From IMG/VR virus record IMGVR_UViG_3300002835_000025: 64,000 nucleotides of DNA; one strand, 5' to 3'. The first letter of the stretch is position 1. Each line of letters starts with the position of its first letter. A program made the translations under genes and the position numbers. A model generated the notes under the pieces. The model worked only from the letters and a program-made list of their open reading frames with translations. It was not told where the DNA came from and did no database searches. This DNA comes from a virus. This document shows positions 13,601 to 62,054 of the stretch, piece by piece.

Positions 13601-14233
13601 ACAAGATTCCCAACAGGAATAACTGTTACTGGTTCAATAGGTAATACACAAACTAATATACTGAGTTTACTGAACAGCAATGAAGTAACTGTCGATACAA
13701 CTACACTAGAATTTACTAAAACTGGTCAAGTAGCACTGTCAGGTAACACTGCAGCAATTGCTATAGGAACTGAATTATCAGTATCATACCAGTCTATATC
13801 AGGTGTGGATACCGGAAGCAGTATCGGTTCTGTTACCAACAGTCAAATTGCTAATCCTATTGCCACAGAATCTGTTGCTGATATAAATAGTGTTATAAAC
13901 GAAACTGTTGTTAGTATATCAGGCAACACTAATATCTCGTTAGTATCAGGATTCAGTCCTAAATCTGAAATTGCACCAAAAAGTGCTGTAGCAACTAGTA
14001 ATATAAATACTATAAACGGTGCTAGTTCTAAAATACTATCAGGAGTATTAAGTAATTATAGATTAGGCGAATTTATAATTCTATATCCTCCAACAAGAAT
14101 TGTTGATGTTGGTAATATGACATTTACTATGGTTTCACCTTCTAATATAGAATTTACTCAAGTTATGGTAACAAAACCAATGGTATTTGCTGAAATAGTA
14201 AAAATGAATGTTCCTATAAAAGTTACTAATTAA
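4610..14233 (+). CDS. Giant (3207 aa) S/T/N/G/I/V-rich repetitive fibre-like virion protein
   Basis: Uninterrupted 9.6-kb ORF; about 20-aa degenerate repeat (SITGNxAxxSxG, GxEPxN); five YxxSDWxxxDY motifs. Confidence 0.7.
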   Translation: MAFISGANSYFLSDWVSLDYTVPGVSPAGTVYLNSVFPSTSYTLLYNSSSVSTGLVSNNTTVDSFGISSSIQTVSVLPIISSGVIGNASTSLNSSLTNSSIGFLSGNTGSTSISNEPTNTTILLQTNASYLSVGIPYPVVSGPITNNITNTSTGVIGKNVTVGLSGTLSTGAVSSPIANTNITPNNVISNGQTGTLIGSNSTSVTGNSVAFTINDISNFVSGSYNNPAYFLSDWVSIDYTVYSNLVVGVTRIGFVSNGYEVSITGNAASTSVGIEPNNLMVQVPSIINQTQIGSVTNSSTNSISGNSTSSSIGSVVQSTSLSVVGNLATGSIGNEPTYTTTSVTGNGASTSINSVIASSTNYITGNLATTSVGNEPTYTNTSLTGTSSSVILNPLSYSYTTSITGNQSNTSVDSVIKAVVASITGNSTSITVNRISTSVTGTYNNPAYYLSDWIELDYTVYSNLIVGITRTGSLSKEYEVSITGNIATASIGTEPNNTTVQLSGSIAYTDTGSLYPENYNSNTGILNSVSISSLAKINTNSIIGNFANTSIGTEPNNTTVSISNNSIYSSIGSTSISSTKSVSGNTAVISISNEPTNTVVQLTNNIGSVGIGSIVTSNTLTSSGLLGSTNTNSVIAIASNSISGNELSTDIGSVVQSFSNLSGGISQSYYLSDWVELDYTVYSHLILGIGKLGRPDNSHIVELTGTSATAYIGIESDSVTYVITGNTANTNINSVTGIVSVNAYLTGNSSSSSVGQLTITNTNPVTGNVGTFQSIPVERKLSNDTTYYSSDWVSSDYIEPGHIILGTGQIGSVTANVIANPGDVFLYGTSATASINSVIPSQSITVVGNTADVFIGIQSEQNTLSVIGTSSATAIGSVVKSSSINLVGNIATTLIGTETYDITLPISGNGIITSINSVQQVLSVDAESNITSISTSSLDKFAFTNLIGNVGSTSIGNEPNYSTTSIQGNTGLVVISDVAQSNSISISGNTISTAVGTEPNRTTILLTGFTNSVNIGILTNDIKVAVLGNATTGFVSSVTNAKVLSISGNLSTSSIGSVSQTGSSVSSGVSSSFDTNTVQYSTITGLTGNTATLSIANEPTNVTVSLYGNGITSNIGSIVSKFNQTNIVGNGSLTSIGSITGYSVTTSIRGNTASSAVGSQPNNIVLSINSVGNDIFSSIGSVSKFSVTNIVGNTATTSIGIESNNITLRISGVGSTTSINSTVFSKVVPITGSSSSITLDQIDYYNVNSIVGNTATTALANESTNLVLGLFGNVGTISTSSLPKFSNTSISKTSANAYLNSIGHDNTTSITGITSTTSVGTEPNNTTLLLSGNLGNITSGNITPNAISTAVGSSLTSSISNTKALSYSDTSGNELLTFLGNIQEDVKVAIIGNTGSISVGSELNNTTNSVTGTSSYSAIGSVAKSVANNITGLSNTTSSGLIIQSVDVGIRGITSAFAIGTEPNNTIVSVSGISAYSNLGFATGNTSTDSTNAIATGSVSTVTQSSEYALNGSSSLISVSSTLANLITDSTGIVSSIDTGFVLPQSSGNITGNTGSTSVGTEPTNTIISISNASAQGVVGYSVPTKVVNLSNTLSSTSVGNSGVNVIIGILGNSAKGTLFGDSSTVESNSVTVASTGNSSSIVLGNLTKISSTNINGNSTLGSIGNTQNGLNYTILGNTATGLVGNEPTNTTLVLSGNSISIQQGIISKTSITNVTGNTATGSVGNEPTNTVLAITSNTSTNYVGDVNKSSDVGILTNVLTSAVGTTGKDTSTSITGITGATSVGTEPTNTIVTLSGNTLFSSIGLPQVTNDNTVNTISSSGIAGNVLSKLEISNIGNIGSFDVGNALAIISKNVSGNSSTGNTNTVSVSRTTDIFGITGATSLANEPTNTIVSITGTSSSISLSSVAQIGSSDITGIPLTGLLDSNLVKFSVTNIQGNTGSTAISKDPSNTFVSIFGNAASSSIDNVTTSNTILAISNVATASIGIRPSNTTIGISGNSGSSIANNLNQIGSNGANGFIGTTGLSSVVQSSSIILSGITGATSLANEPTNTIVSITGTSGYAIANNVIFTLSYPANSNVGTLQQGTLLNSNSITARTITGYGVLANANPVVSSLLNSVTGTTSLANQPTNKVIQLAGISSTASTKPLNQVGSALGQSNTGITSVNDLYQVGSVELRGNTGSIVIGTEPNNTIILLSGLSSNILTSNLKQVGSALGVSASGTIQTSNLNQIGSANGIGNLATTQTSNLKQVGSANGIGNTATITIGTDPANTIVLLSSVTSSVIPNSVDQSTSIVPSNNSSIVSIGQVQSNIIADSTGNSASGYTDSTDIISSVVPNGIIANITSGYTLSSISKDVQGTQSTFDIGQFGKSVSCTVSSVIGSLSLGTEPTNSAISLTGITSNTETGLVSRFSYNELSSVTGSIELGSVSEIGSSIASSNTSVGSVGFVSKSSTVALNGASTTIYIGANNDTPSSNNATVAATGIASTGITGFVSKSNVTGIVGNTSTFAIGNDPLNITLPLSGTSGSVSPNTVSKSSNITVTGNTITSSIGRDSTNSTVLLGGVSNTVSIGNVLGIISADVFNNYSIGYIGNVGKYSDVGVTGNTSAFVIGTEPNNTIVALNGILSYGYVGDIDKTSSVPNYGNSSYTVTGNLSKTSTTSVSNNLVSTNVGNTDIQSNAFVSGIIATISSGVDENNVQIAISGNSISGLIKALPPIVSSTPASNTISTNVGNVLIDKPVSISNNISTAVAGTLSSNVLSSIQGNTGSTSVGSEPTNTTLTLSGIATSVSAKQLNIVSSYNANGNAIVANAGTISKSISVDVYGIDANISIGIEPNNISVVLQGTTGTVSTPILNQIGSGDGIGNQIVAIPGTVQPVVSSAILGITSTIRLGNESAVDLLLLNGNVALGITGKVIPITTARSLGIQSTVTIGESIPVVSGVLLGNSATIQTGISIPDADRYAFSTGVDSSTEVGDVGTSLFLELSSVTGNTNIADASLTRFPTGITVTGSIGNTQTNILSLLNSNEVTVDTTTLEFTKTGQVALSGNTAAIAIGTELSVSYQSISGVDTGSSIGSVTNSQIANPIATESVADINSVINETVVSISGNTNISLVSGFSPKSEIAPKSAVATSNINTINGASSKILSGVLSNYRLGEFIILYPPTRIVDVGNMTFTMVSPSNIEFTQVMVTKPMVFAEIVKMNVPIKVTN

Positions 14234-40110: not shown

Positions 40111-40207
40111 TTGTTTGTTCTGATGGGGAACATTAAAACTCATCAAAAACAAATCACGTCTTCGGAGTGATTATTACTAAAATCTCGCTGAAAAGGAGAA
40201 CATTATG
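40111..40207 (+). promoter_or_regulatory. ROSE-like RNA thermometer in the hsp20 5' UTR
   Basis: TCTCGCT-GAAA-AGGAGA (40183-99) pairs UCGCU with the SD through a bulged G; two upstream hairpins. Confidence 0.6.
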
Positions 40208-40657
40208 TTAGCAAATCAATTAGTTCAATTCGATAAAGAACTCTTAAAATTCTTTGTAGGATTTGATACACATTCAGAAGCAATTAGAAAAGCCACTGAA
40301 AATCTTAAAAATCAGAAGTCTTATCCTCCGTATAATATTAAAACGGTTGGTGATAATTCTTACATAATTGAGATTGCTGTTGCTGGTTTTAGCCGTAATG
40401 ATATTGATGTGGAACTTTATAACAGAACACTGACTGTGACTGGTAAATCCGCGGAACCAGATGATAGTGTTTACTTGTATAAAGGATTGGCATCAAGAGC
40501 ATTTACTAGAACTTTTACAATTGCTGAAAATGTGGTAGTATCTGAAATTAAGTTAAACGATGGTATGTTGCGTATCTTTCTTGACCATATCATCCCAGAG
40601 GAACTTCGTCCTCGTAAACTTGAAATCAATACTTCCAATAATTTGTTGTTAGGTTAA
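40205..40657 (+). CDS. hsp20: Small heat-shock protein (Hsp20/IbpA-like)
   Basis: YPPYNI, IEIAVAGF, YKGLASRAFTRTF and DGML. Confidence 0.93.
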   Translation: MLANQLVQFDKELLKFFVGFDTHSEAIRKATENLKNQKSYPPYNIKTVGDNSYIIEIAVAGFSRNDIDVELYNRTLTVTGKSAEPDDSVYLYKGLASRAFTRTFTIAENVVVSEIKLNDGMLRIFLDHIIPEELRPRKLEINTSNNLLLG

Positions 40658-41645: not shown

Positions 41646-42632
41646 ATGATGATTAACGAATTTTATACAAATGCAATCCAATATGGTAATAAAATACTTG
41701 TCAGATCTATTAGAGATGGATTGCCACAAAAGCAGAAAATCGATTTTTACCCTACCTTATATACCACATCAGGAAAATCTTCAGAATCTTCTTCATTCAA
41801 GTCTTTACATGGAGTAGAATTATACGAAATAAAACCGGGTACCATAAATGATTGCAAAGATTTCATAAAAACTTACGAAAATGCGATGCCTGTGTATGGA
41901 CAAACAAACTATGCATATCAATATATTGAAGAAAATTACAAAACCGATATAAAGTTTGATTCTGACTTATTAAAAATCATTGCTATCGATATAGAAACTG
42001 CAAATGAAGAATCTGGTTTTCCTCATCCAAAATACGCTAATGAAGAAATTCTACTAATTACTGTCAGAGATCTTAAAACTAAATCTACAAAAATATTTGG
42101 ATCTAGACCTTATGAAGGAAAACATAAAGCAGATTTTGTCCTTTGTAAAGACGAAAATCAATTACTTCAGCAATTTGTGACTCATTGGCAACAAAGAATC
42201 CCTGACATTATTACGGGTTGGAATATTGACAACTTTGATATTCCGTACATTATTAATAGACTACTAAGAACTATAGGAGAAGATTATGTTAAAAAACTTT
42301 CTCCATGGAATATAGTCAATGAACGTTCTAAAAAGGTTAATAACGTAGAACAACAGACTTATGAAATACTCGGTGTGTCATCTTTAGACTATATTGAACT
42401 CTATAAGAAATATTCTAAAAAAAACCAGGAGTCATACAGACTAGACCATATAGCATTTGTAGAACTTGGTGAAAGAAAACTGGATCATAGCCAATGGAAT
42501 ACTTTCAAGGAATTTTACTCTGGTGAATATGACACTCATAAAATTAGGCCAGAGTATGAAAATTCGGATACAAAGTCTTATAGAAGAACACAGATAAAAT
42601 TAGAGTTAATTAGACGCGGACTAACAGTTTAA
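41646..42632 (+). CDS. gp43: DNA polymerase gp43, N-terminal fragment (N domain, Exo I and II)
   Basis: [19 protein letters not shown] and [15 protein letters not shown]; stops before Exo III. Confidence 0.92.
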
Positions 42633-43470
42633 ATTGTTTACAGTTTGTGCCATGCCATCTATTATAATTAAGAGGATCAAAACTGCAGTTGCAATATTCA
42701 CAAAGTATTGATTCTTTCTTTTTCATAGGTGGCAATTCTATTTCAGATTTGAATACATTTAAAGAACTGTCAAATATTGTCCAAGTTTTAGAAACTAGTC
42801 TTGTATTTCCTAGTGTTAAATTATATATTTTCTGTGGGCTTATTTTTGTTAATTGATGAAATTCTGATATAGTCATATCAAATACATCTTTAGTTATTAC
42901 ATTTTTAAATTTGAAAATGTCTTTTTTAAACCAAGGTTTACTTTGCTTTGCAATTTTACCAAAATTAATATTTTTACATTCAATAGAACATAATTTCTGG
43001 CTAATATTATGTGTAATTATTTCTTTATTACATACGGAACAATTTATAGTGATATACTTTCTGTTCGATAGCGCTTTCAATGATCTATTCTGTTTAATTA
43101 TTTCTTTAGTACACGATCTAGAACAACAATTACTGCATCCGCTAAATTCTTTATAACAATATTTGCAAATTTTCATTGGCTTAAGTTTTTTAACTCCAGT
43201 ATTTCCATCTCCGCCATCAGTCTTATTTAGGAGTATACCTGTCCCAATGTCTTTTCGCCCATGCCATCTTATCATTCTTCTTTCTATTGCTAATGCTCCA
43301 ACTTCAGATAAATTCGTTTCTAGGAATATTATCTTTGTTCTATCCTTTGGCACAGATATTCCTTTATGAATATCATAGGCTCTAGTATTCTTACCTTTTC
43401 CAATGTAATATGGTGTTCCGTCTGACTTTCTAATATATGCATACACGTAATATATAAGATCGCTGGTCAT
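42610..43470 (-). mobile_element. Free-standing GIY-YIG-like homing endonuclease inserted antisense within gp43
   Basis: [15 protein letters not shown]...RA, conserved E, N.TDGGDG, multiple CxxC fingers and C-terminal CxxC..RWH..NC. Confidence 0.85.
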
Positions 43471-43627: not shown

Positions 43628-45307
43628 ATGTTTAGTGATATATCAGATAAAGATTTATTAGATGAATATTATAAATTAGATAAAGAAATAAAGCAAGAAT
43701 CATGGACTACATATACTGATTACAATTATCATGACGTATTGCTTATTGATAAATTGGATGAGCAATTAAAGTTTATCGAGTTACAACTCACAATGGCATA
43801 TACTGCCAAGATTAATTATCAAGAAGCATTTAGTCCGGTTAGACTATGGGACTCTACAATCTATCACTATCTTATTAATAAGAACATTATTATTCCTAAC
43901 ATGGACAGAAATGTTAAAGGAGAATTAATGGGTGCCTATGTAAAGACTCCTATTACTGGCATTCATAAATGGATCGCGTCATTCGATTTGGCATCATTAT
44001 ATCCTCATCTAATAATGCAATACAATATCAGCCCAGAAACATTAACAACTACGAAATTGTCATTCACTATTGATAATTTATTAGACAAAATTGAACTTCC
44101 AAAAGTTGATTATGCAATTACTGCTAATGGTTGGTGCTATTCTAAAGATAAGCGCGGATTCCTACCAGAGTTGATGGACACTATGTATGCAAATCGTTCT
44201 ATGCATAAGAAACAAATGTTAAAGCATGAACAGCAATACGAGAGTGATAAGAACAATAAGGAACTATCAAAAGAAATTTCAAGACTTAATAACTTGCAAC
44301 TAGCTCTAAAGGAAACACTAAACAGTGCATACGGAGCTATTGGAATGCCATACTTCCGATATTATGATTTGAGAATGGCAGAATCCATAACATCATCTGG
44401 ACAGTTCTCGATAAAATGGATAGCAAACAGAATTAACAAATATTTGAATTCAGCTTTGAAAACAAATAACACCGATTATATTATTGCTTCGGATACCGAT
44501 TCTGTGTACGTGTCATTGGAAACTTTGGTCGAAACGACTCAAGGTGAAAAATCGACAGAAGATAAAATCAAATTCATGGATTCATTCTGCGGCAAAGTCT
44601 TAACTCCGTTAATAGAAAAATCATATATCGAGTTAGCAGAGTACATGAATGCCTATGAACAAAAGATGCAAATGAAACGAGAAGTACTTGCTGATAAAGG
44701 TTTGTGGACGGCTAAGAAAAGATATGCATTAAGAGTTCATAACTCTGAAGGTGTTCAGTATGATAAACCAAAAATGAAAATTATGGGCATTGAGATTGTA
44801 AAGTCATCGACTCCAACTGCCATAAGAGAAAAATTGAAGTCAACTATTGATATTATTTTTAATGACACTAATTTGGACCTCATAAGATTCATTGAAGACA
44901 CTAGACAGGAATTTAAAACATTAGCAGTAGAAGATATTGCTATTCCAAGTACAGTTAATGGAATGATAAAATTTTCTAATGACAAAACTATTTATTCTAA
45001 AGGCTGTCCGATTTATGTCAGAGGAGGTTTATTATACAATAAAGTTGTTAAAGATATGAAACTTGATCAGAAGTATCCTTTAATAGGCGCAGGAGACAAA
45101 TTAAAATATGTTTATTTGAAACTCCCAAATACTATTAAAGAAGATGTTATTGGATTCCCTACTGAATTACCAATGGAATTCGGATTACATAAGTATATTG
45201 ACTACAACACTCAGTTTGAAAAAGTGTTCTTGAATCCATTAGAAAAGATTGTCGATGCTATTGGTTGGAATTTAAAAGAGCAATCGACTTTAGATGCATT
45301 CTTCTAA
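43628..45307 (+). CDS. gp43: DNA polymerase gp43, C-terminal fragment (Exo III plus polymerase)
   Basis: YNYHD (Exo III), SFDLASLYP, K..LNSAYG, ASDTDS, KKRY and clamp-binding TLDAFF. Confidence 0.95.
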   Translation: MFSDISDKDLLDEYYKLDKEIKQESWTTYTDYNYHDVLLIDKLDEQLKFIELQLTMAYTAKINYQEAFSPVRLWDSTIYHYLINKNIIIPNMDRNVKGELMGAYVKTPITGIHKWIASFDLASLYPHLIMQYNISPETLTTTKLSFTIDNLLDKIELPKVDYAITANGWCYSKDKRGFLPELMDTMYANRSMHKKQMLKHEQQYESDKNNKELSKEISRLNNLQLALKETLNSAYGAIGMPYFRYYDLRMAESITSSGQFSIKWIANRINKYLNSALKTNNTDYIIASDTDSVYVSLETLVETTQGEKSTEDKIKFMDSFCGKVLTPLIEKSYIELAEYMNAYEQKMQMKREVLADKGLWTAKKRYALRVHNSEGVQYDKPKMKIMGIEIVKSSTPTAIREKLKSTIDIIFNDTNLDLIRFIEDTRQEFKTLAVEDIAIPSTVNGMIKFSNDKTIYSKGCPIYVRGGLLYNKVVKDMKLDQKYPLIGAGDKLKYVYLKLPNTIKEDVIGFPTELPMEFGLHKYIDYNTQFEKVFLNPLEKIVDAIGWNLKEQSTLDAFF

Positions 45308-46272: not shown

Positions 46273-47073
46273 ATGAATTATTTGAAACATTACGAATTAT
46301 TAATTACTAGAGCAAAATCTAGAAGTAAAATTTTAGAGTATATTGAGAAACATCATATAGTTCCAAAGTGTTTAGGTGGAAATAATGATATTGACAATAT
46401 TGCTGAACTAACACCAGAGGAACATTATTTTGCCCATCAACTACTAGCAAAAATATATCCAGATAATTGCGGGTTAATTAGTGCATGTAAATTGATGGGA
46501 GGAAGTATTTCGGGAAAAAGAAGTAATAATAAAATCTATGGGTGGATAAGAAGAAAATCTAATATATTGATGGGACAGTCAATTAGGAAACTTCATATTG
46601 ATAAAAGAGATATGAAGTCTATATCATTAGGATTTGAAAATTATATTGATATGTCTAAGTCTATATGGGATTTATTCATAACCCATAAATTACATTATAC
46701 TTCTATAGAAGAAAAATTTGGGGTTAGTCGGCATTTTATAAAAAGATCTTTAGAAGTATATGCTAAAGATAATGACTTATTAGATGAGTTAGCTCAAGGT
46801 TATTATGATCTTAAGTCAAGCAGTCAAAAACTAGGCAGATCTAAATTTACTGAAGATCAAGAAAGCAATAGAATAACAGCATTAAAAAATATTGACTATG
46901 CCGCTAGATCATTAAAAACCGGTTCTAGAAAAGGATCATTAAATCCAACATTTGGTAAAACTTGGTCTCATATTAAAATGATGTGCCCATATTGTAATAA
47001 AGAAGTCGGCGGAAAGCGTTGGCATTTTGATAACTGCAGGAGTAAAAATGAAAATCAAATCAATAAAATTTAA
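46273..47073 (+). mobile_element. Free-standing HNH homing endonuclease between the split-intein halves
   Basis: EKHHIVPKCLGG.N...N...LT.EEH..AH.LL; NPTFGK; CPYC..RWH..NC. Confidence 0.88.
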
Positions 47074-47152
47074 TACACGTAAGGCAGATGTTTACGACAT
47101 TGAAACTCCTACACACGATTATATATTAAAAAACGGAATAATTTCTCATAAT
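47048..47152 (+). mobile_element. Split intein C-fragment (35 aa)
   Basis: MKIKSIK...VYDIET..HDY...NGIISHN followed by Thr+1. Confidence 0.9.
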
Positions 47153-47656
47153 ACACAGGAGCTTTACAGCAAACCTGTAGTTTCTGGTGGAACTGGTGTT
47201 TACTTATCTGCTGATAATATTTTTATTCTTGGAAGACAACAAGAAAAAGAAGGAACAGAAGTCATTGGTTATAACTTTATCATCAATGTAGAAAAATCAA
47301 GATATGTAAGAGAAAAATCAAAAATTCCAATTAGTGTTCTATTTGAAGGTGGTGTTTCTAAATGGTCAGGATTATTAGAAATGGCATTAGAATCTGGTCA
47401 TGTCATTAAGCCAAATAATGGTTGGTATTCTAGAGTAGATAAAATTACTGGTGAGCTTGAAGATAAACGATATAGATTAAAAGATACTATCAATAAAGAA
47501 TTCTGGCTTCCTATATTAGCAAAAAAGGATTTCCAACAATGGATAAAAGAATCTTATAAATTGACAGAATCAGAAATGCTATCTGATTCAGTAATTGAAT
47601 CAGAATTATCAAAGGTTGAATTAGAGGATTTGGAAAAAATTTCTGAATTAGTTTAA
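47048..47656 (+). CDS. uvsX: Split-intein C half fused to UvsX C-extein
   Basis: AGGAG RBS with ATG 47048; extein TQELYSKPVVSGGTG..SAD and NVEKSRYVREKS. Confidence 0.9.
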   Translation: MKIKSIKFNTRKADVYDIETPTHDYILKNGIISHNTQELYSKPVVSGGTGVYLSADNIFILGRQQEKEGTEVIGYNFIINVEKSRYVREKSKIPISVLFEGGVSKWSGLLEMALESGHVIKPNNGWYSRVDKITGELEDKRYRLKDTINKEFWLPILAKKDFQQWIKESYKLTESEMLSDSVIESELSKVELEDLEKISELV

Positions 47657-49965: not shown

Positions 49966-51660
49966 ATGAAAACATACCAATCATTATTTAATCCAAAGAC
50001 TAATAAGATAGATTTTAAAAAGGTTGATCTCATTGAGTCTTTGGATAATTCTCCATATTCAAAGCATTCTAATCCAAATATCGAATTTGAAAAAACCACT
50101 GAATTAGATACTATTCGTGAGCAATACTTTCGCGGAGAAATCTTTAATGTGGGAGATATAGTTGAATCCAATGATACATATTTGGAAATACTTAGTAGAG
50201 GTAGCAATTACCTTACAGTTACAGATTCTGATGGTAATATACAACGCAAATGGCTTGTAGAAGTTAAGATGGTTGATGAAGAAACTAGTAATCTTTTAAA
50301 AGAAGATTTTGGTAATGTCACAACAAACCAAGTTACATATAAAGGATTTACTACTAAGAATTTTGATATAAGTAAAGAAGCAATCTTTGAATACACGAAA
50401 TTAACTCAAACACCGAACATTGATCCCGTAGCATTGCTTAATGCTATTAAGGCAACTGACCAAGCATTCGGTATTCAAAAAAGCATCGTATCGGGTTCAT
50501 TATCTATAGATGATTTCCATACATTCCAAAGAGCTCAACAAGTAGCCGTGGATATTCTTAAAAGATTGGGTGTCTATCTTCATCACGAAGATTACTTAAT
50601 GAATTCATATCACAAAATGGAATTAGCAGTATCCGATTATGGAAGCCAAGATTCTTATTCAGCAGGAAAAATACAAGAAATGACATACTCAAGTTCAGAC
50701 AAACTAAAAATTGCCAAGATTGTTGCTGGTACTCTTGGTGTTGATTCTGATTCTTCATCACCAGAAGAACTTATCAATAAGGCACTCAAAACACTTTCAA
50801 AGAATCCACTGAAATCTGATTCATTAAAGATTCTTAAAAATATGTTGAATACTGCCACTGAAGCAGGAATCATGTATGATAAGAAACTTATGCCGGCATT
50901 AGTAAAAGAAGATTCATCCAAATTAGTAAGCTCACAAAAAGTAAAAAGAGTTACTAATCCAGACCAAGTTCACCCAAACGATAGTGACGAAGATGACAAT
51001 GGCGGTCCAGGAGATCAAGATTCCGATGATTCAAAAAATACTCAAAGTGATTTTGACGATGAAAGCAAAGGTTCTCATAGAGTTGGAAGTACTATAGAAC
51101 CAAATGGAGATAAAGACTCTTTACGCAGAATGAAAATCAAATATAAATTACATGAAGATTCTGAAGAAGATGATTCTGAAATGTCGGATGACGAATTGGA
51201 TGATATGCTCAATTCCGTGTCTGATGAAGATATTCTAAGTACCTATGACGACGATGAACTTCATGTAGTTGACGATGAAGGAAACCATGTTGCTCATGTT
51301 AAAGACCTTGATGGAATGAACGAATCATATCTTACTGAAGTATTATCAAGAATGGAACGCATCAAAGCTGCTATAAGATTCAAACAGTCTCAAGGTAAAC
51401 GTATGCGTAAGATGAAGATTGCTTTGCATACTCGTTCTAGTCCACAAAGAATTAATCATCGAGCGCGTAATGCCGCAATCAATGCACTTAAAGCAAAACT
51501 TGCAAGGAAACCTTTGAGTCAATTGACCGTCCAAGAAAAAGAACGTATTGAAAGAATCGTAGCTAAGAAAAAGAAACTAATCGATAAAGCAGCAATGAAG
51601 TTAGTGCCTAAAATTAGAAAAATTGAAAATGCTCGTCTTCATCCAATCAACAGAGACTAA
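49966..51660 (+). CDS. Large modular late/head protein
   Basis: REQYFRGEIFNVGD domain; acidic linkers; many LxE sites; very basic C-terminal domain. Confidence 0.6.
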   Translation: MKTYQSLFNPKTNKIDFKKVDLIESLDNSPYSKHSNPNIEFEKTTELDTIREQYFRGEIFNVGDIVESNDTYLEILSRGSNYLTVTDSDGNIQRKWLVEVKMVDEETSNLLKEDFGNVTTNQVTYKGFTTKNFDISKEAIFEYTKLTQTPNIDPVALLNAIKATDQAFGIQKSIVSGSLSIDDFHTFQRAQQVAVDILKRLGVYLHHEDYLMNSYHKMELAVSDYGSQDSYSAGKIQEMTYSSSDKLKIAKIVAGTLGVDSDSSSPEELINKALKTLSKNPLKSDSLKILKNMLNTATEAGIMYDKKLMPALVKEDSSKLVSSQKVKRVTNPDQVHPNDSDEDDNGGPGDQDSDDSKNTQSDFDDESKGSHRVGSTIEPNGDKDSLRRMKIKYKLHEDSEEDDSEMSDDELDDMLNSVSDEDILSTYDDDELHVVDDEGNHVAHVKDLDGMNESYLTEVLSRMERIKAAIRFKQSQGKRMRKMKIALHTRSSPQRINHRARNAAINALKAKLARKPLSQLTVQEKERIERIVAKKKKLIDKAAMKLVPKIRKIENARLHPINRD

Positions 51661-51663
51661 AAC

Positions 51664-52101
51664 ATGGATAAGTTAATTGCAACCTCAAGAATAGTATTTG
51701 CTAACAACTTTGTGTTATACTTTAAAAGTGCTTCATATCATTGGAATGTAGAATCTTTCTATTTTCCACAATTCCACAATTTCTTTGGTGATTTCTATGC
51801 TGCCACTTATGGTGCTATAGATACATTAGCTGAATTCATTAGAACTTTTGATGCTTATGCTCCTATTAGTTTGACTGAATTGACTAGATACAAAACAATC
51901 AATGAAGATATGGTTAAACCAGATAATGTGAATGCTATGTTGGTTAATCTATATGAAGCTAATGTGTTGATGATTGAATCGTTGGAATCTGCATTTCAAG
52001 TATCACAAGAAGTAAATGAACAAGGTTATGCTAATTTCTTAGCAGACCGTTTAACAGCACATAAAAAGCATCAGTGGATGCTTAAATCAATTTTAAAATA
52101 A
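51664..52101 (+). CDS. dps: Dps/ferritin-like DNA-protection protein
   Basis: YHWNVE...F.QFH, D.LAE.IR and H.KH.WML. Confidence 0.88.
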   Translation: MDKLIATSRIVFANNFVLYFKSASYHWNVESFYFPQFHNFFGDFYAATYGAIDTLAEFIRTFDAYAPISLTELTRYKTINEDMVKPDNVNAMLVNLYEANVLMIESLESAFQVSQEVNEQGYANFLADRLTAHKKHQWMLKSILK

Positions 52102-56184: not shown

Positions 56185-56740
56185 GTGGTTAACCTACCTT
56201 CTTAGTGGCATCTCATTCTTAGGACTTGTTCTAGGTGTATTGATACCAATTCCTGCTCATTACAAGATGGCTCTGTATTCTGGGTTAGGCATGTTACTAT
56301 GCCTGAATTCATTTGCTATAGGAGTTTCGGTAAACGAAGCAAACTGGCAAGTAAAAGTTAAAGATATGCAAATCCAGATTGCACAACTAGAAACCAAAAC
56401 TGCTGAAGTGACGACAAAAGTTGTTACTGAATATATAGAAAAAGTCAAAATAGTGGAAGGCAAAACTCATGTTATCATTAAGAAAGTTCCTGAATATATT
56501 ACCAAAGAATCTGATGCTAAGTGTAGTATCAATACTGGTGCTATCGAGTTGCTCAACGCTGCCGCAGAAAACAAAGTTCCCGAATCCTCCAGAACTTCTT
56601 ATGAAGGACCCTCCGATGTTAAACTCTCTACCCTTGTTGAATCCGTCAGTGGAAACTACGGTACGTACTATCAAGTAGTAGAACAACTTAAATCACTCCA
56701 AGATTGGATTAGAAAACAAAAGGATTTGAACAATGAGTGA
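56159..56740 (+). CDS. Inner-membrane spanin (Rz-like)
   Basis: N-terminal TM segments; coiled coil; IIKKVPEY...D..C; C-terminal QL..LQDWI. Confidence 0.75.
   Translation: MFLLNLIPEWLTYLLSGISFLGLVLGVLIPIPAHYKMALYSGLGMLLCLNSFAIGVSVNEANWQVKVKDMQIQIAQLETKTAEVTTKVVTEYIEKVKIVEGKTHVIIKKVPEYITKESDAKCSINTGAIELLNAAAENKVPESSRTSYEGPSDVKLSTLVESVSGNYGTYYQVVEQLKSLQDWIRKQKDLNNE
56469..56678 (+). CDS. Outer-membrane lipoprotein spanin (Rz1-like) embedded in the +1 frame
   Basis: Signal peptide with lipobox LSSC; Pro-rich mature part FPNPPELLM; start could be 56514. Confidence 0.75.
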   Translation: MLSLRKFLNILPKNLMLSVVSILVLSSCSTLPQKTKFPNPPELLMKDPPMLNSLPLLNPSVETTVRTIK

Positions 56741-57170
56741 CCATAATTCACCATGTAATGACCTTAATAAACTTGTAACTGAAGTAGCTGTTCTGCAGAA
56801 TGTAGTTTACAAGATAGATAATACAGTTGCAGAAATTGCTAAAGCATCGTCAGAAGTATCAAGATTATTAATAGTACACGACAACAGACTAAACAATCTT
56901 GAGAATAATAATAAAGAAACTACAACTGATGTCAAGGATCTATACAAGAAAATGGAAGAAACTACTAAAGAGATTGTGGATAAGTTAGATGATATGGAAT
57001 TTCGTATTGAATCTAAACTTAAAGAACATGAAGAAAAATCAGATGAATATAGAGAAGATATTTCTGAAAGGTTGAATGCATTAGAAACTTGGAAGTGGTT
57101 AGTAGTTGGTGGCAGTATAGTAATTGGATACCTTATTGACCATTCAGATATATTGAAACTATTCAAATAA
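56733..57170 (+). CDS. Coiled-coil protein with C-terminal membrane anchor
   Basis: Heptads; RL..LE.WKW.VVGG TM segment. Confidence 0.6.
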   Translation: MSDHNSPCNDLNKLVTEVAVLQNVVYKIDNTVAEIAKASSEVSRLLIVHDNRLNNLENNNKETTTDVKDLYKKMEETTKEIVDKLDDMEFRIESKLKEHEEKSDEYREDISERLNALETWKWLVVGGSIVIGYLIDHSDILKLFK

Positions 57171-57308: not shown

Positions 57309-57337
57309 GTGTACAAATATCAAAAATATGATATAAT
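57309..57337 (+). promoter_or_regulatory. Early promoter for the modification operon
   Basis: GTGTAC-N17-TATAAT. Confidence 0.7.
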
Positions 57338-57368: not shown

Positions 57369-58475
57369 ATGAAATTAGCAGTATTGAAATTAGGCGCAAG
57401 AATTGTTTTTGGCCAAAAGGTTGGATCAAGCGGAGGATCAGGTGAAGCTGCTTCTTTAATAGAAATGATGGTTGAAGGTGGATGTGAAGTTGACTGTTAT
57501 ACTAAGGTATTGTCTTCAGATCAACAAAACAGATCAGTCAACGTGCTTAATATTGAAGACCATTATGAGAATATTACCAGTAATGTATACGATGCATTAG
57601 TAGTCATTAATGGCGCTGTTAATTTCTTTGGTGGCCAAGAAGACAGACCACAGATTCTTAATTATAAAGCAATAAACAACTTTAATGGAAAAATCATTTA
57701 CTTGTACTGTGACCCGAATTTATCTCTAAAACAAATTTGGCCTTCTATTGAGAAGAAACCCTGGGCTTCAAATTGGAATAAGGAAGATATTAATATTACA
57801 AAGCCTATTAATGTGATTTCGCAATCATACAATTTAGAAAAAAATAAAGCACTATTTGAGAAAAATGGATATCCTGTAGAATCTATTGTGCAATATGATT
57901 TCCAAAAATTCCCAATGATGAAACCAAGAGAAACTTCTATTCTAGGAAAGACTGTTGATTTGTCTTATGGAGGAACCTTTAGATCTGGTAGAAGAGAAAA
58001 GAAATTAATAGAATTCTATTTTGGACTCCCAGAAGATATTTCGGTAGAAGTATTCGGTAAAATTAAAATTACGGACTTTAATGAGAAAAAAGTAACCGGA
58101 TTACGTCCGCCAAAGTTTCTTCCTCCAGTCGATTATAATAATATGATTCAGAAAATGTCTTCTTCTAAAACCCATATTGCTATTGGTGATAATCAATACC
58201 CAGATTTTGAAATGATCTCTCAAAGAGTATATGAATCTATTATGGCGGGAACTTTATTATTCATTGATAATGAATTTGATAAGAATAAAAGAATTTTTGG
58301 AAACAATACTGAACTTTCCAATTTGCTATATATCAATGACAGAAATCAATTTGCAGATAGATTAAAATCATTGTCAGATTCTGATTACGAATCACTAATA
58401 GAACTTCAACATTCATGTGTAGATTTTAATAAATCAGAATATTGTTTAAACTTTGTAAAACTTTTGGAGGTATAA
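57369..58475 (+). CDS. bgt: DNA beta-glucosyltransferase homologue (GT-B)
   Basis: T4 BGT-like motifs YD.L.V.N...NFFGG, WP....PW, YGG.FRSG.RE.K..EF, IGD..Y and RV.E......ID.EFD. Confidence 0.85.
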   Translation: MKLAVLKLGARIVFGQKVGSSGGSGEAASLIEMMVEGGCEVDCYTKVLSSDQQNRSVNVLNIEDHYENITSNVYDALVVINGAVNFFGGQEDRPQILNYKAINNFNGKIIYLYCDPNLSLKQIWPSIEKKPWASNWNKEDINITKPINVISQSYNLEKNKALFEKNGYPVESIVQYDFQKFPMMKPRETSILGKTVDLSYGGTFRSGRREKKLIEFYFGLPEDISVEVFGKIKITDFNEKKVTGLRPPKFLPPVDYNNMIQKMSSSKTHIAIGDNQYPDFEMISQRVYESIMAGTLLFIDNEFDKNKRIFGNNTELSNLLYINDRNQFADRLKSLSDSDYESLIELQHSCVDFNKSEYCLNFVKLLEV

Positions 58476-58476
58476 T

Positions 58477-59289
58477 ATGGAACAAGAAAAAGACGTATTT
58501 GATGACAGTTCAGCAGTATTTTTTAAAAATGGATTCCTTGGTAAAATAAAATTTTCCAGTGCATGGCATATTGCATTCATTAGCAGATATACTTCAACAT
58601 GCACAGAAATTACCAAAATCAAAAGAAAAAATACTGAAGATTATGTTACTATATTAGATGTTGGGTGTGGTAATAAAACATTCTATCAATTTTGGTCTAA
58701 AAGTTTTGAAAGTTTATTGCGTCCCAGAGTGGATTACTTGGGTTTAGAATATGAACAATCTGTTGTAGATGAAGCAAATTCACCAACTGGAAGAGAATCT
58801 GTCAACAAATACAAAGTCATTCACTGTGATCTAAATACTACTTCATTTCATGACATTAAGCATCACGACAAATATGACGTAATTCTGTTGCAGGAAATTC
58901 TAGAACATATTCCAAAAGAAACTGCATTGAAACTTATAAAAGAAGCATCTGAATTGGTATCAGATAGAGGATTTATTGTCATATCATCTCCTAATCCAAA
59001 AAAGGACGAAGGTCAAGAATTTGTATGGCCAGAGAATCACATTCAAGAGTTTACTTTGGACGAAATGCATGATATGATAACCACTAATGGATTAAGTATC
59101 AGAAGAGTCAATGGGTGGTTAGGTAAAGCCAGATATTTTAAAAAGCATTTGAGTTCTAACAATATGGCTCTATATAACCAATTAAAAGGGATTTCGCAAG
59201 GATTCGCGGCAAGTACGATAGCATTTCTAAATCCAAAGATTGCAGAATGTTATATTTTTATTGCAGAAAAAAATAAGGGTATATTATGA
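58477..59289 (+). CDS. Class I SAM-dependent methyltransferase
   Basis: ILDVGCG, YLGLE, YDVILLQEILEHI, ISSPN and HIQEFT. Confidence 0.85.
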   Translation: MEQEKDVFDDSSAVFFKNGFLGKIKFSSAWHIAFISRYTSTCTEITKIKRKNTEDYVTILDVGCGNKTFYQFWSKSFESLLRPRVDYLGLEYEQSVVDEANSPTGRESVNKYKVIHCDLNTTSFHDIKHHDKYDVILLQEILEHIPKETALKLIKEASELVSDRGFIVISSPNPKKDEGQEFVWPENHIQEFTLDEMHDMITTNGLSIRRVNGWLGKARYFKKHLSSNNMALYNQLKGISQGFAASTIAFLNPKIAECYIFIAEKNKGIL

Positions 59290-60998
59290 AAATCGTAATA
59301 TTTTCAGGTGGCACTGGTTCAGTTCAATTACAGAAAGGTCTATATGAAACATTTGGTAAAGATGTATTAGACTATACGGTCATTACAAACTTAGCGGATA
59401 ACGGTCTTTCTACTGGAGAATGCAGAAAAGTTATGGATGGAAAAATTATGGGTCCGTCCGATTTAAGAAAGAATCAAATGCTAAGAGCAAAACTGGAAAA
59501 TAGTATATCAGAAAAATTGTATGAATTCCTAAATGACAGAATAACTATTTCTGCCGATGAAGTTCAATCGGTGCTTTTAGACAGAATCCATAAACTAGAC
59601 ATTGATATGTTTTATAGAGGTGTATTAGCTTCTGGAGTGAATCAATTCTTTGATAGCCAGTTATCATCACAGATAGATTATATTGACTTTTCAATTTCTA
59701 ATATCATTTATTCTGGAATAGCAAAGAAACATAACTATTCATTGGATTCTGCAGGAAAAGTATTTGAAGGAATATTAGACATTCCAGAGAATAGTGTAAT
59801 TTCTAATACTGATTCTCCGATGTATCTTATGGCTAAAACCCAATCTGGTTATATTATACATGACGAAGCTGATATAGTATCATGGAATAATCCTGATGAT
59901 AAAATCGTAGATTGTTTCTTTGTTGATAACCATAATAAGCCAGTAATTCCAGAATTATCAGAACTTTCGAAATCTGTAATATTATCAGCAGACATTATAA
60001 TTTTTTCATCCGGGACTCAATGGTCATCTCTTATTCCGACATATAAATCCATAGGATTCTCTGAAACTATATCAGAATCGAAAGCAAAGAAATATTTAAT
60101 TCTTAATGCTAGTCAAGATGCTGATATGAAAGGTGTATCTGGTGACGAATTGATTAATATTCTTATGGGTTATTTACCAAAAGATACTACTATCATTTCT
60201 GCTTTAGACGGTGACCCTTTATTAATTCCTGATTCGTATCAAAAAATCTCAGCTTTCTTACTTAATCAGGGTAAACACGACGGGAAGGCATTGGTAAAAA
60301 CTATTTTTGACCACTATTATAATTACCCAAAGATTAGTGACCAATACGTTTTCGATTATGATGATACTATTGTTGCTAGAGGCTCGCAGCACTCTAAAGT
60401 ATCTAAATCCAATGTCAAAAGAGTTCAAGAACTTTATAATAAGACTAATAATGTTTGGATATCTACTGGAAATACTATCAATGCTTTGCATGGAAATTTT
60501 TCTAATATTAAAGCATTAGCAGATGGTGGTGTTAATCTATACAAATTTAATAAAGAAGGAATTCCGCAATTCGAAAAATGCCTAGATAATGATTTACTTT
60601 TCTCTAAAAATGATATAGAATATATTACGGCAGATATTGTAGACTGTGGAATTGATATTACTAAAATCCAAATACGTGGAAAGGTAATGATTTCTATCAA
60701 ACCAATATCTCCTGAATACAGACATAGCATTAAATTATTATTAGAATCTAAACTAAGCAAATACGATCTATTAATTAGAATGTCTGGAAGAACAACGATT
60801 GACATTACAAAACCAAACTTGGATAAAATTTTAGCAACAGAAACTCTATTCGTTAATGATTTTACTTATATTGGTGATGAAGGTGAATCTGGCAATGACC
60901 ACCAAATATCACAATGTGGACATTGCAATTTTATACCAGTTAAAGATGTCAAAGATACTAACATGTACTTAGCAATTCTATTGGGAAAAGATGATTAA
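59286..60998 (+). CDS. CofD/YvcK(GlmR)-family domain fused to a HAD-IIB (phosphomannomutase/phosphatase-like) domain
   Basis: N-terminal FSGGTG, DNGLSTG, GPSDLR and ADIIIFSSGTQWSSLIP; C-terminal VFDYDDT, ISTG, SGRTTIDI and YIGDEGESGND. Confidence 0.8.
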   Translation: MKIVIFSGGTGSVQLQKGLYETFGKDVLDYTVITNLADNGLSTGECRKVMDGKIMGPSDLRKNQMLRAKLENSISEKLYEFLNDRITISADEVQSVLLDRIHKLDIDMFYRGVLASGVNQFFDSQLSSQIDYIDFSISNIIYSGIAKKHNYSLDSAGKVFEGILDIPENSVISNTDSPMYLMAKTQSGYIIHDEADIVSWNNPDDKIVDCFFVDNHNKPVIPELSELSKSVILSADIIIFSSGTQWSSLIPTYKSIGFSETISESKAKKYLILNASQDADMKGVSGDELINILMGYLPKDTTIISALDGDPLLIPDSYQKISAFLLNQGKHDGKALVKTIFDHYYNYPKISDQYVFDYDDTIVARGSQHSKVSKSNVKRVQELYNKTNNVWISTGNTINALHGNFSNIKALADGGVNLYKFNKEGIPQFEKCLDNDLLFSKNDIEYITADIVDCGIDITKIQIRGKVMISIKPISPEYRHSIKLLLESKLSKYDLLIRMSGRTTIDITKPNLDKILATETLFVNDFTYIGDEGESGNDHQISQCGHCNFIPVKDVKDTNMYLAILLGKDD

Positions 60999-61743
60999 TT
61001 TAATTATTATAGCTGCTGGAAACGGCAAAAGAATGGGAAACATTAATGTTCCAAAAGTATTATATCCAGTAAATGGAGTTCCTAATTTAAAAAGAATTAT
61101 TACTAATGCTATAGAGTCCGAAGTATTTGACTCTATAGATTTAGTAATTAAAGATTCTGCAGTAAAAAGTTTTAAAGAATTTTTGGATAATAGTGAATTT
61201 GATATTAAAATAAATCTAATTCCTATAAATTCGGGACTAGGAGATGGACATGCAATTCTTTCCATGTATAAGAATGCTCATCAATATAACAATTCTATAT
61301 TGGTATGGGGCGATGTTTATATTGATAGTCCAATGATATTCAAAGAATTGAAAGATGTTGGAAGTTCTACTGGTAATAACTTTTCAAGCGCAGTAATTCC
61401 GGTATGTACTGAAAAGAATCCTTACGTTACTATATTGACTGATTCTAATATGAACGCATTATCAGCAGACTTCTCTAAACTTGGAGAAACTCATTTGGAA
61501 GGATTCCACGATCAGTCTATATTCTATATCAATAACGATGTAATATATGATAGTCTTCAAAAAATGCATGAAGTGTTATGGAAAAATGGACAATACATTA
61601 CTCAATCAAAAGAATTAAATTTCTTACATATTCTTCATTATTTAAGAAATATTAATTACCCAGCAAATTGTTATATTACTGAGTACCCAACAAAGTCGTT
61701 TAATAGTATTGAAGAATTGACAAAATTGGAAAATTCATTATGA
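60991..61743 (+). CDS. GT-A-fold nucleotidyltransferase (GlmU/MobA-like)
   Basis: IIAAGNGKRMG...PKVL, GDGHAI, VWGD and FNS.EEL. Confidence 0.85.
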   Translation: MINLIIIAAGNGKRMGNINVPKVLYPVNGVPNLKRIITNAIESEVFDSIDLVIKDSAVKSFKEFLDNSEFDIKINLIPINSGLGDGHAILSMYKNAHQYNNSILVWGDVYIDSPMIFKELKDVGSSTGNNFSSAVIPVCTEKNPYVTILTDSNMNALSADFSKLGETHLEGFHDQSIFYINNDVIYDSLQKMHEVLWKNGQYITQSKELNFLHILHYLRNINYPANCYITEYPTKSFNSIEELTKLENSL

Positions 61744-62054
61744 TAAAAACCGATAAAAAATATATCCTATTGGGATCATCGAGACTTAGAAATTTTAAAC
61801 AAGTTAATGATTCTGCTTGGAGATTCTCTTGCAATTATTGTGGTGATTCTGTAAAGAATCCAAAGAAGACCCGCGGAAATATATACATGAAACACCACAA
61901 ATTTCTTTATAAGTGTTTTAACTGCGGAATTTCTAAATCTATTTCTGAATTCATTAAAGATTTGGATTCTAATTTGCATACAAAATATGAAATGGAAAAT
62001 TATAAAGAAGGATCCTCAATCTCACCAGATTTATCAATGTTCGGAGTAAAATGA
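61740..62054 (+). CDS. Primase gp61 zinc-binding domain only (no TOPRIM domain)
   Basis: F.C.YCGDS.KN..K.RG and YKCFNCG...S...F; ends at 104 aa. Confidence 0.75.
   Translation: MIKTDKKYILLGSSRLRNFKQVNDSAWRFSCNYCGDSVKNPKKTRGNIYMKHHKFLYKCFNCGISKSISEFIKDLDSNLHTKYEMENYKEGSSISPDLSMFGVK

Follow-up and report, generated by a model that had tools for sequence, protein, structure and literature searches.

The 64,000-nucleotide stretch of viral DNA analysed here (the window; IMG/VR virus record IMGVR_UViG_3300002835_000025) carries a cassette of four co-oriented plus-strand open reading frames (ORFs) at 57369-61743, which is considered below as a candidate unit of DNA hypermodification. The ORFs code for a homologue of the T4 glycosyltransferase BGT, a methyltransferase (MT), a fusion of a YvcK-like domain with a HAD domain (the fusion), and a nucleotidyltransferase (NT). 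Their spacing is +1, -4 and -8 bp. An earlier reading made from the letters alone (the sequence-only reading) had described four tightly coupled genes with a 1-bp gap and overlaps of 4 bp and 8 bp, and these ORFs and distances are exact. Its domain assignments (BGT, methyltransferase, CofD/YvcK-HAD fusion, NT) are borne out by family, profile and Foldseek searches. A purine-rich ribosome-binding-like motif lies upstream of every cassette ORF start. A fifth ORF (61740-62054) overlaps the NT gene by 4 bp, so that five genes are coupled. The features of the region are as follows.

56733..57170, plus strand: DUF7201 gene of the upstream flank (PF23831, 3e-11; tblastn matches to Melnitz gene 37 and HTVC008M)
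57310..57337, plus strand: sigma-70-like promoter candidate (TGTACA, 16 nt, TATAAT, with an upstream TG, extended -10)
57369-58475, plus strand: T4 BGT-family (GT63) glycosyltransferase, predicted to act on 5-hydroxymethylcytosine (5hmC) in DNA; 368 amino acids (aa), PF09198
58477-59289, plus strand: class I MT, dependent on S-adenosylmethionine (SAM), of small-molecule type; 270 aa, Methyltransf_31/23/12/25/11
59286-60998, plus strand: YvcK-like/HAD fusion gene; 570 aa
59286..60320, plus strand: YvcK/GlmR/CofD-superfamily domain of the fusion, residues 1-345, with profile and Foldseek matches to YvcK
60330..60998, plus strand: HAD-IIB domain of the fusion, residues 349-570, of phosphomannomutase (PMM)/alpha-phosphoglucomutase (alpha-PGM) type by profile matches in the PDB
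60991-61743, plus strand: sugar-1-phosphate NT, GlmU N-domain-like; 250 aa, NTP_transf_3, IspD
61740..62054, plus strand: zinc-binding N-terminal domain of a gp61-type primase; 104 aa, phrog_47/451

The BGT homologue matches PF09198 (T4-Gluco-transf) at 2.7e-30, with 105.7 bits against a cut-off of 27, and phrog_7922 at 2e-62 over residues 1-351. It is 29% identical to T4 BGT over the full length. Residues E22, D100, R191, R195, Y261 and R269 of T4 BGT are invariant in an alignment of that enzyme with five homologues linked to the fusion and NT. In T4 BGT, Asp100 is the catalytic base, acting with Glu22, and Arg191, Arg195, Arg269 and Tyr261 bind UDP. Since the UDP-contacting residues are kept, the donor is likely a UDP-sugar.

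Genes for synthesis of the acceptor base lie beyond the window. The genome was followed further through exact-protein look-ups, which led onto contigs of 77.6 kb and 143 kb. The sequence-only reading had placed the hydroxymethylase outside the window, and no ThyA-family ORF was indeed found within the 64 kb. The 77.6-kb contig that carries the cassette encodes, at a distance of 16.6 kb downstream from the NT gene, a gp42-type dCMP hydroxymethylase, a MazG-like protein (also described as a MazG/PRA-PH-like pyrophosphatase) and a dCMP deaminase, and the objection that the genome might hold no acceptor-base pathway therefore does not apply. The hydroxymethylase homologue (222 aa, ThyA family) shares 54% identity with T4 gp42. 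At the position of T4 D179, where Asp determines specificity for cytosine, it carries Asp, and the counterpart of E. coli D169 is Asp as well. According to the residues diagnostic for ThyA variants, the D169N variant makes 5-hydroxycytosine (PMC13326640). As the D169-equivalent Asp is kept, the gp42 homologue would not be a 5-hydroxycytosine synthase, and on genomic grounds the phage DNA is expected to contain 5hmC as the acceptor for BGT.

A T4 endonuclease IV-like gene (L019 17373-17915), beyond the end of the window, adjoins the gp42 homologue. This assignment comes from a precomputed Pfam match (PF26887), which our own Pfam scan did not reproduce at this position, the model perhaps being missing from the scanned copy. 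A gene of this kind would fit a phage whose own DNA is kept free of cytosine. The same hmC gene cluster holds a 326-aa ORF without a Pfam match (L019 16343-17323).

The fusion is modelled by AlphaFold with a predicted local distance difference test (pLDDT) score of 93.7. It matches PF01933 (CofD) at 5e-21 over residues 3-330 and, weakly, Hydrolase_3. A profile of the N-terminal domain finds YvcK-type structures in the PDB (2ppv at 2.7e-24, also 2q7x and 2hzb; range 2.7e-24 to 8e-14); CofD is absent from the matches at E<=0.01. Foldseek gives template modelling (TM) scores of 0.76-0.78 to YvcK structures versus 0.61-0.67 to CofD/FbiA. Judged by profile and predicted fold, the domain is closer to YvcK/GlmR (UPF0052, TIGR01826; 2ppv, 2o2z, 2hzb, 2q7x) than to CofD. 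It keeps the motifs of that family, namely the GGTGS loop, D38-N-G-x-S-T-G, G-P-S-D59 and GTQWSS (GT(Q)WSS in the family), and differs from it by an insertion of about 47 residues (approximately 89-135). Its YDNGLSTG, with invariant D38, aligns to ADNGGSTG of 2ppv, which is the GlmR D40/D41 region, a conserved N-terminal putative active-site motif that has been mutated in a study reporting uridylyltransferase activity for GlmR orthologues (PMC10128056). By our reading of the motifs, D38 and D59 may be counterparts of Asp45 and Asp57, the metal ligands of FbiA (PMC7253369).

Invariant residues of the N-terminal domain include D38, S42, T43, R47, D59, R61 and K62, among others. Some 20 polar positions in the YvcK-like domain do not vary among the phages, nor do they among 37 bacterial homologues. 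Their recurrence in bacterial glycan loci with neither BGT nor gp42 points to a shared small-molecule reaction of the YvcK-like domain rather than to an action on DNA.

The C-terminal HAD domain is similar along its entire length to eukaryote-type phosphomannomutases and to alpha-phosphoglucomutase. When the PDB was searched with the single sequence of this domain, chance matches only were obtained, and a profile search was used instead. The profile matches PMM 7myv at 1e-12 (2-224 of 231 positions), Lactococcus alpha-PGM 4bnd at 1e-12 and PMM2 at 1e-9, and Foldseek adds PMM matches at 3e-10. The HAD motifs are invariant (D357, D359, T361, K514, G530-D531-E532...G536-N537-D538). The block R464/K472/R479 aligns to the PMM pattern '...R.N..isPiG....eeR' in the cap-domain region that binds the sugar phosphate. 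The domain is thus a predicted phosphomannomutase/alpha-phosphoglucomutase-type mutase.

The NT profile matches GlmU (9e-14), IspD (2e-11), TarI (1e-9) and further NDP-sugar pyrophosphorylases in the PDB, and CofC is absent among these matches. In the signature AAGxGxR...PK, residues A8, A9, G10, G12, R14, P21 and K22 are invariant. The protein is predicted to be a GlmU-like sugar-1-phosphate nucleotidyltransferase and not a CofC-like enzyme.

The MT matches class I methyltransferase families at 3e-10, with motif I (LDVGCG) and an LQEILEH motif conserved. Weak profile matches to UbiG, Hen1 and type-12 methyltransferases were also obtained. None of the DNA methyltransferase families (C5, N4/N6) was matched by the MT; the matches are to small-molecule-type class I families only. 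The MT family is small (16 clusters) and occurs on contigs that also carry the fusion. Its gene always lies close upstream of the fusion, mostly between BGT and fusion and in one locus 5' of BGT. A role as sugar methylase in accessory tailoring is plausible for this candidate.

The sequence-only reading called for a survey of conserved co-occurrence among phages, and co-occurrence was found. Of 40 fusion loci in IMG/VR, 39 have the NT gene next to the fusion, 34 have BGT no more than 10 kb away and 23 have a gp42-like gene within the same distance. Genes for a dNMP-kinase-like protein, a MazG-like protein and dCMP deaminase stand beside the BGT, fusion and NT trio in some loci, and gp42 is directly adjacent in several. 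One widespread contig type has the order gp42, deaminase, BGT, MT, small ORF, fusion, NT, dUTPase. In the phage database the fusion was found in two records only, the Ralstonia jumbo phage RsoM2USA and the uncultured 462-kb LR756500; the same two have the NT, and the best BGT matches are there as well. The trio is contiguous across the record ends in RsoM2USA, which lacks the MT, and it is also contiguous in LR756500 and in several contigs of 150-370 kb. A dCMP-type ThyA homologue lies near the cassette in both records. Since the same gene order recurs across unrelated phages, the cassette is no chance juxtaposition. BGT, fusion and NT form its core, and the MT is an accessory member in a few lineages.

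The pair of fusion and NT, called the module below and predicted to make a sugar donor, is also present in bacteria. A scan of species genomes gave 36 loci, mostly in metagenome-assembled genomes of gut Clostridia, with fusion and NT adjacent in 34; neither BGT nor gp42 was found in these 36 loci. The neighbours are a Wzx-type flippase and a GT2 synthase in locus L043, and Bac_transf, GT8, LicD and WavE in locus L040. In one clade, 14 bacterial loci hold GT2 synthase, fusion and NT as a fixed three-gene unit. A HMMER scan at E<=1e-30 gave 431 fusion clusters (50% identity), and natural YvcK-PMM-NT three-domain proteins, together with one GT2-YvcK-PMM protein, are among the matches. On a quick tree the window belongs to a clade that is well supported and comprises 21 sequences, of which 20 are linked to BGT, and BGT linkage requires at least three changes.

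These observations are best accommodated by a DNA hypermodification unit, which on balance is what the cassette probably is: a nucleotide-sugar donor module would feed a BGT-family glycosyltransferase acting on 5hmC in DNA, with the MT as accessory enzyme of sugar tailoring. The partner of the module is constantly a Leloir glycosyltransferase, and the active site of the module is unchanged across acceptors; the module would therefore be a donor-synthesis unit. The phage very probably makes its own donor.

The pathway could proceed in five steps. The PMM-type HAD domain would convert a host hexose-6-phosphate into hexose-1-phosphate, from which the GlmU-like NT would form an NDP-hexose, probably a UDP-hexose. 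The YvcK/CofD-like domain could then act further on the sugar phosphate or the sugar nucleotide, perhaps by transferring a second uridylyl group in the way reported for GlmR, perhaps by converting the donor into an unusual one. The BGT-like enzyme would move the sugar onto 5hmC. In phages that carry the MT, including the present one, the sugar would probably be methylated, on the donor or on DNA. The order of the genes, the identities of their domains, the intactness of the catalytic motifs, the presence of an hmC pathway in this genome and the conserved co-occurrence are observed; what the substrates are, which sugar and which nucleotide are involved and where methylation takes place are inferred. 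The first model of the sequence-only reading, in which the HAD mutase and the NT make an unusual NDP-sugar for BGT and the sugar is then O-methylated, is thus supported as to donor synthesis by the phage itself (a PMM-type HAD mutase with a sugar-1-phosphate NT); O-methylation of the sugar is plausible.

Several observations weigh against this assignment. NCBIfam equivalog cut-offs are reached by none of the cassette proteins: the NT scores 20-45 bits with the named equivalogs (GlmU, IspD, RmlA, MobA) versus cut-offs of 150-725, and the N-terminal domain of the fusion scores 60.4 bits where the YvcK/GlmR cut-off (TIGR01826) is 196. A single pathway with two activities of nucleotidyltransferase type would contain a redundancy. 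Ralstonia, the host of RsoM2USA, can presumably make UDP-glucose, and a simple supply role gives no obvious explanation for the module in that phage. The MT is present in 4 of the 40 IMG/VR fusion loci, as an accessory member. Its predicted structure (pLDDT 69.9) finds generic class I methyltransferases only in Foldseek and points to no particular substrate. The BGT-like proteins of the clade are acidic, with isoelectric points (pI) of 5.6-6.5 versus 9.0 for T4 BGT, so that DNA binding is assumed from family and context.

Ordinary supply of UDP-glucose is an unlikely alternative in which the module would raise the level of UDP-glucopyranose, or provide it, where the host has little or none. 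As in T4, plain beta-glucosyl-5hmC would result; the YvcK-like domain would be an accessory uridylyltransferase or a regulator in the manner of GlmR, and the MT would have nothing to do with DNA. Such a role is consistent with the uridylyltransferase activity reported for GlmR orthologues (PMC10128056), with the UDP-contact residues of T4 BGT being kept, with the action of PMM/alpha-PGM-type mutases on glucose or mannose phosphates, and with the streamlined hosts of the nearest cultured relatives, which are Methylophilales OM43 phage Melnitz and Pelagibacter phage HTVC008M. However, the very strongly conserved YvcK-like domain would be superfluous to a two-step route to UDP-glucose, the MT family is found with the module only, and the module-linked BGTs are 40-65% identical among themselves versus 29% to T4 BGT. 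The module also occurs in a Ralstonia jumbo phage and in Clostridia glycan loci, whose hosts are assumed to make UDP-glucose by the standard pgm/GalU route.

A transfer of phosphorylated groups, the second model of the sequence-only reading, fares worse and is quite improbable. In a refined form, the YvcK/CofD-like domain would transfer hexose-1-phosphate or another phospho-metabolite from an NDP-hexose, formed by the mutase and the NT, to a hydroxyl of 5hmC or glucosyl-5hmC, releasing a nucleoside monophosphate and leaving a phosphodiester-linked decoration, while BGT would use host UDP-glucose. The PF01933 match does place the N-terminal domain in the CofD superfamily, its invariant D38 and D59 lie in two motifs common to GlmR/YvcK and may correspond to FbiA Asp45/Asp57, and CofC/CofD form a coupled pair of NT and transferase much as the NT here is adjacent in nearly all loci and sometimes fused; LicD-type phosphotransferases also occur in some of the bacterial neighbourhoods. 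The affinities nevertheless run to YvcK rather than CofD, by profile and fold, and to GlmU, IspD and TarI for the NT, with CofC unmatched. The active site appears independent of the acceptor, as the same polar invariants are present in bacterial glycan loci with quite different acceptors. The constant neighbour of the bacterial module is a Leloir glycosyltransferase, so that the product is probably consumed as NDP-sugar. The strongly acidic character of the YvcK-like domain (median pI 5.0) is weak evidence in the same direction. A target other than DNA, where virion proteins or host envelope glycans would be glycosylated and the hmC link would reflect a shared neighbourhood of nucleotide metabolism, is very improbable. 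It would suit the service of the fusion and NT pair in bacterial glycan synthesis, the acidic BGT-like proteins, unlike T4 BGT, and the location of the window cassette after lysis- and structure-like genes. To our knowledge, though, all characterised members of the BGT family (PF09198/GT63) modify DNA; the residues that serve as catalytic base and in UDP binding are retained, and the gp42-type genes found near the fusion in over half of the phage loci are often accompanied by dNMP kinase, MazG or dCMP deaminase genes.

Within the favoured reading of the cassette as a donor-making hypermodification unit, a more specific proposal can be made tentatively. The phage DNA might contain an undescribed cytosine derivative, namely 5hmC bearing a sugar other than beta-D-glucopyranose and O-methylated by the MT, the YvcK/CofD-like domain being the enzyme that makes the donor unusual. 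Glucofuranose is one concrete candidate for this sugar and not a finding. The beta-1,6-glucofuranan synthase island of Mycoplasma fermentans, which is Clostridia-derived, includes a CofD-family gene and an NDP nucleotidyltransferase, the latter proposed by the authors for UDP-glucofuranose synthesis (PMC11658790). Compared by gene content, that island follows the same logic of GT2 synthase, CofD-family gene and NT as the 14 Clostridia loci. It differs from the module in that the CofD-family gene is reported as two pseudogene pieces and no DNA modification is involved.

The cassette resembles the hmC pathway of T4 in its BGT homologue with the same catalytic and UDP-binding residues, in the gp42 homologue with its cytosine-specifying Asp, in the presence of a dCMP deaminase and an NTP pyrophosphatase in the genome, and in a T4-like virion and replication module. 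In contrast, T4 uses host UDP-glucose and has no mutase, NT, YvcK-like enzyme or MT beside bgt. The dCTPase role is probably played in the window phage by the MazG-like protein rather than gp56, and its BGT is distant from that of T4 and acidic. The fusion differs from YvcK/GlmR, in addition to the insertion, by being joined to a PMM-type domain and by its NT and glycosyltransferase partners, where glmR stands in a yvcJ-glmR-yvcL operon. With the CofC/CofD pair of coenzyme F420 synthesis (FbiD/FbiA), in which CofC is a guanylyltransferase and CofD the 2-phospho-L-lactate transferase, the module shares the superfamily of the N-terminal domain and the pairing of an NT gene with a transferase gene. 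Its N-terminal domain is more distant from CofD/FbiA, the NT has no CofC match, and the partners are BGT, hmC or glycan genes. No F420 genes were seen in the annotated parts, no search having been aimed at them.

A DNA glycosyltransferase with partner donor enzymes can no longer be called unprecedented. Phages RB69, DLP3 and HY126 encode synthesis of UDP-arabinose, in the form of UDP-arabinofuranose, by arabinose-5-P isomerase, the kinase/nucleotidyltransferase AfhE and the HAD phosphatase AfhF, and the UDP-Galf mutase in Pootjesviridae is another precedent of donor synthesis by phages (PMC13326640). Common to these three phages and the window is a phage route from host sugar phosphate to UDP-sugar beside DNA glycosyltransferases and a ThyA-family enzyme, with a HAD-family enzyme and a GT-A-fold nucleotidyltransferase in the donor route. 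Unlike the window phage, they have 5-hydroxycytosine as acceptor, formed via D169N ThyA, and glycosyltransferases that are not of BGT type; their HAD enzyme, rather than being a mutase of PMM type, is a phosphatase that acts together with a kinase; neither a YvcK/CofD-like domain nor an MT is present. The operon of the window itself appears undescribed, as had been supposed: no paper describing partner genes of BGT was found, and no paper describing the module was found in the literature on CofD, UPF0052 or phosphomannomutase with phage hmC glycosylation. The genome paper of RsoM2USA annotates just BGT and two ThyA homologues.

If the YvcK/CofD-like domain does make the donor unusual, this would be the first catalytic role in nucleotide-sugar synthesis for this branch of the YvcK/GlmR superfamily. 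Restriction enzymes and CRISPR nucleases are kept off phage DNA by glycosylated hydroxymethylcytosine, which also influences type IV restriction, and the choice of sugar decides which defences see the phage DNA. The module is widespread in T4-like and jumbo phages, including the cultured RsoM2USA. An enzyme of the YvcK/GlmR/CofD family, whose biochemistry is debated, would be tied to an easily read output, the modified nucleoside, which makes the reaction directly testable. The presence of the module in glycan loci of gut Clostridia would be explained at the same time.

A single early promoter had been claimed for the cassette. The gap of 198 bp 5' of the BGT gene does contain a single sigma-70-like site (57310-57337), but sites of this kind are not enriched in the region (39 versus 35.1 +/- 6.6 in shuffled sequence). 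The claimed promoter is therefore plausible, with this site as a candidate. No terminator-like site was found in the cassette region. The G+C content of the cassette is 30.9%, slightly under the 33.1% of the window.

The placement of the cassette differs among relatives. In phage Melnitz the DUF7201-like gene is followed directly by a full gp61 primase gene and then by ribonucleotide reductase genes. In the window the cassette and its upstream gap sit between the DUF7201 gene and the remnant of a primase zinc domain, and in the related contig L021 a cassette without the MT is located after the full-length primase. From these three arrangements it follows that the cassette behaves as a movable insert in this region. 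The primase remnant is 54% identical to residues 5-91 of the Melnitz primase; the rest of that protein (TOPRIM part) had no match in the window and 21 kb downstream. Full primases of 339-340 aa are encoded in relatives (L021 4867-5886, L059 5989-7008, phage Melnitz). Splitting of one phrog_451 gene by the cassette was considered and rejected, the flanks being separate genes in relatives (the DUF7201 gene and the gp61 primase).

The window further encodes terminase, sheath, portal, scaffold, SbcCD, clamp loader, a split family-B polymerase, UvsX and a DnaB-like helicase, and the major head protein is 61% identical to its counterpart in Synechococcus phage S-WAM1. By this gene content the phage is a T4-like (Kyanoviridae-like) freshwater myovirus. 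The closest cultured relatives of the flanking genes are in Methylophilales phage Melnitz and Pelagibacter phage HTVC008M, and megablast of the region against 50,697 phage records gave no match. Identical cassette proteins were found on many metagenome contigs of up to 143 kb from several samples. By the order of their genes, both the end and the start of the 143-kb contig join on to the 77.6-kb contig, suggesting that the genome measures about 143 kb.

Some other genes of the phage deserve mention. The exonuclease part (41646-42632) and the polymerase part (43628-45307) of the split family-B DNA polymerase are separated by a minus-strand ORF (42610-43470, phrog_15526). The UvsX-like recombinase is apparently interrupted: ORF 45368-46231 matches the N-terminal part of UvsX only and is followed by a homing-endonuclease-like ORF (46273-47073) and a 209-aa ORF (47027-47656). 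A single ORF of 3207 residues (4610-14233) lies upstream of the packaging and head genes. A 564-aa protein (49966-51660) has a weak cytidyltransferase-like PHROG match over residues 36-108 only, and its gene is followed by a ferritin-like gene (51664-52101; precomputed Pfam PF00210). The large ribonucleotide reductase ORF has 908 aa in a variant contig of 95-100% identity (L004 9430-12156) versus 568 aa in the window's own type (L010 13857-15563), where a SNase-like ORF follows; the difference could be due to an insertion, an intein or a different gene end. A small heat-shock protein of the Hsp20 family (40205-40657 in the window) is 31% identical to the product of RsoM2USA gene 3 (L001 6175-6810), which adjoins the BGT gene of that phage.

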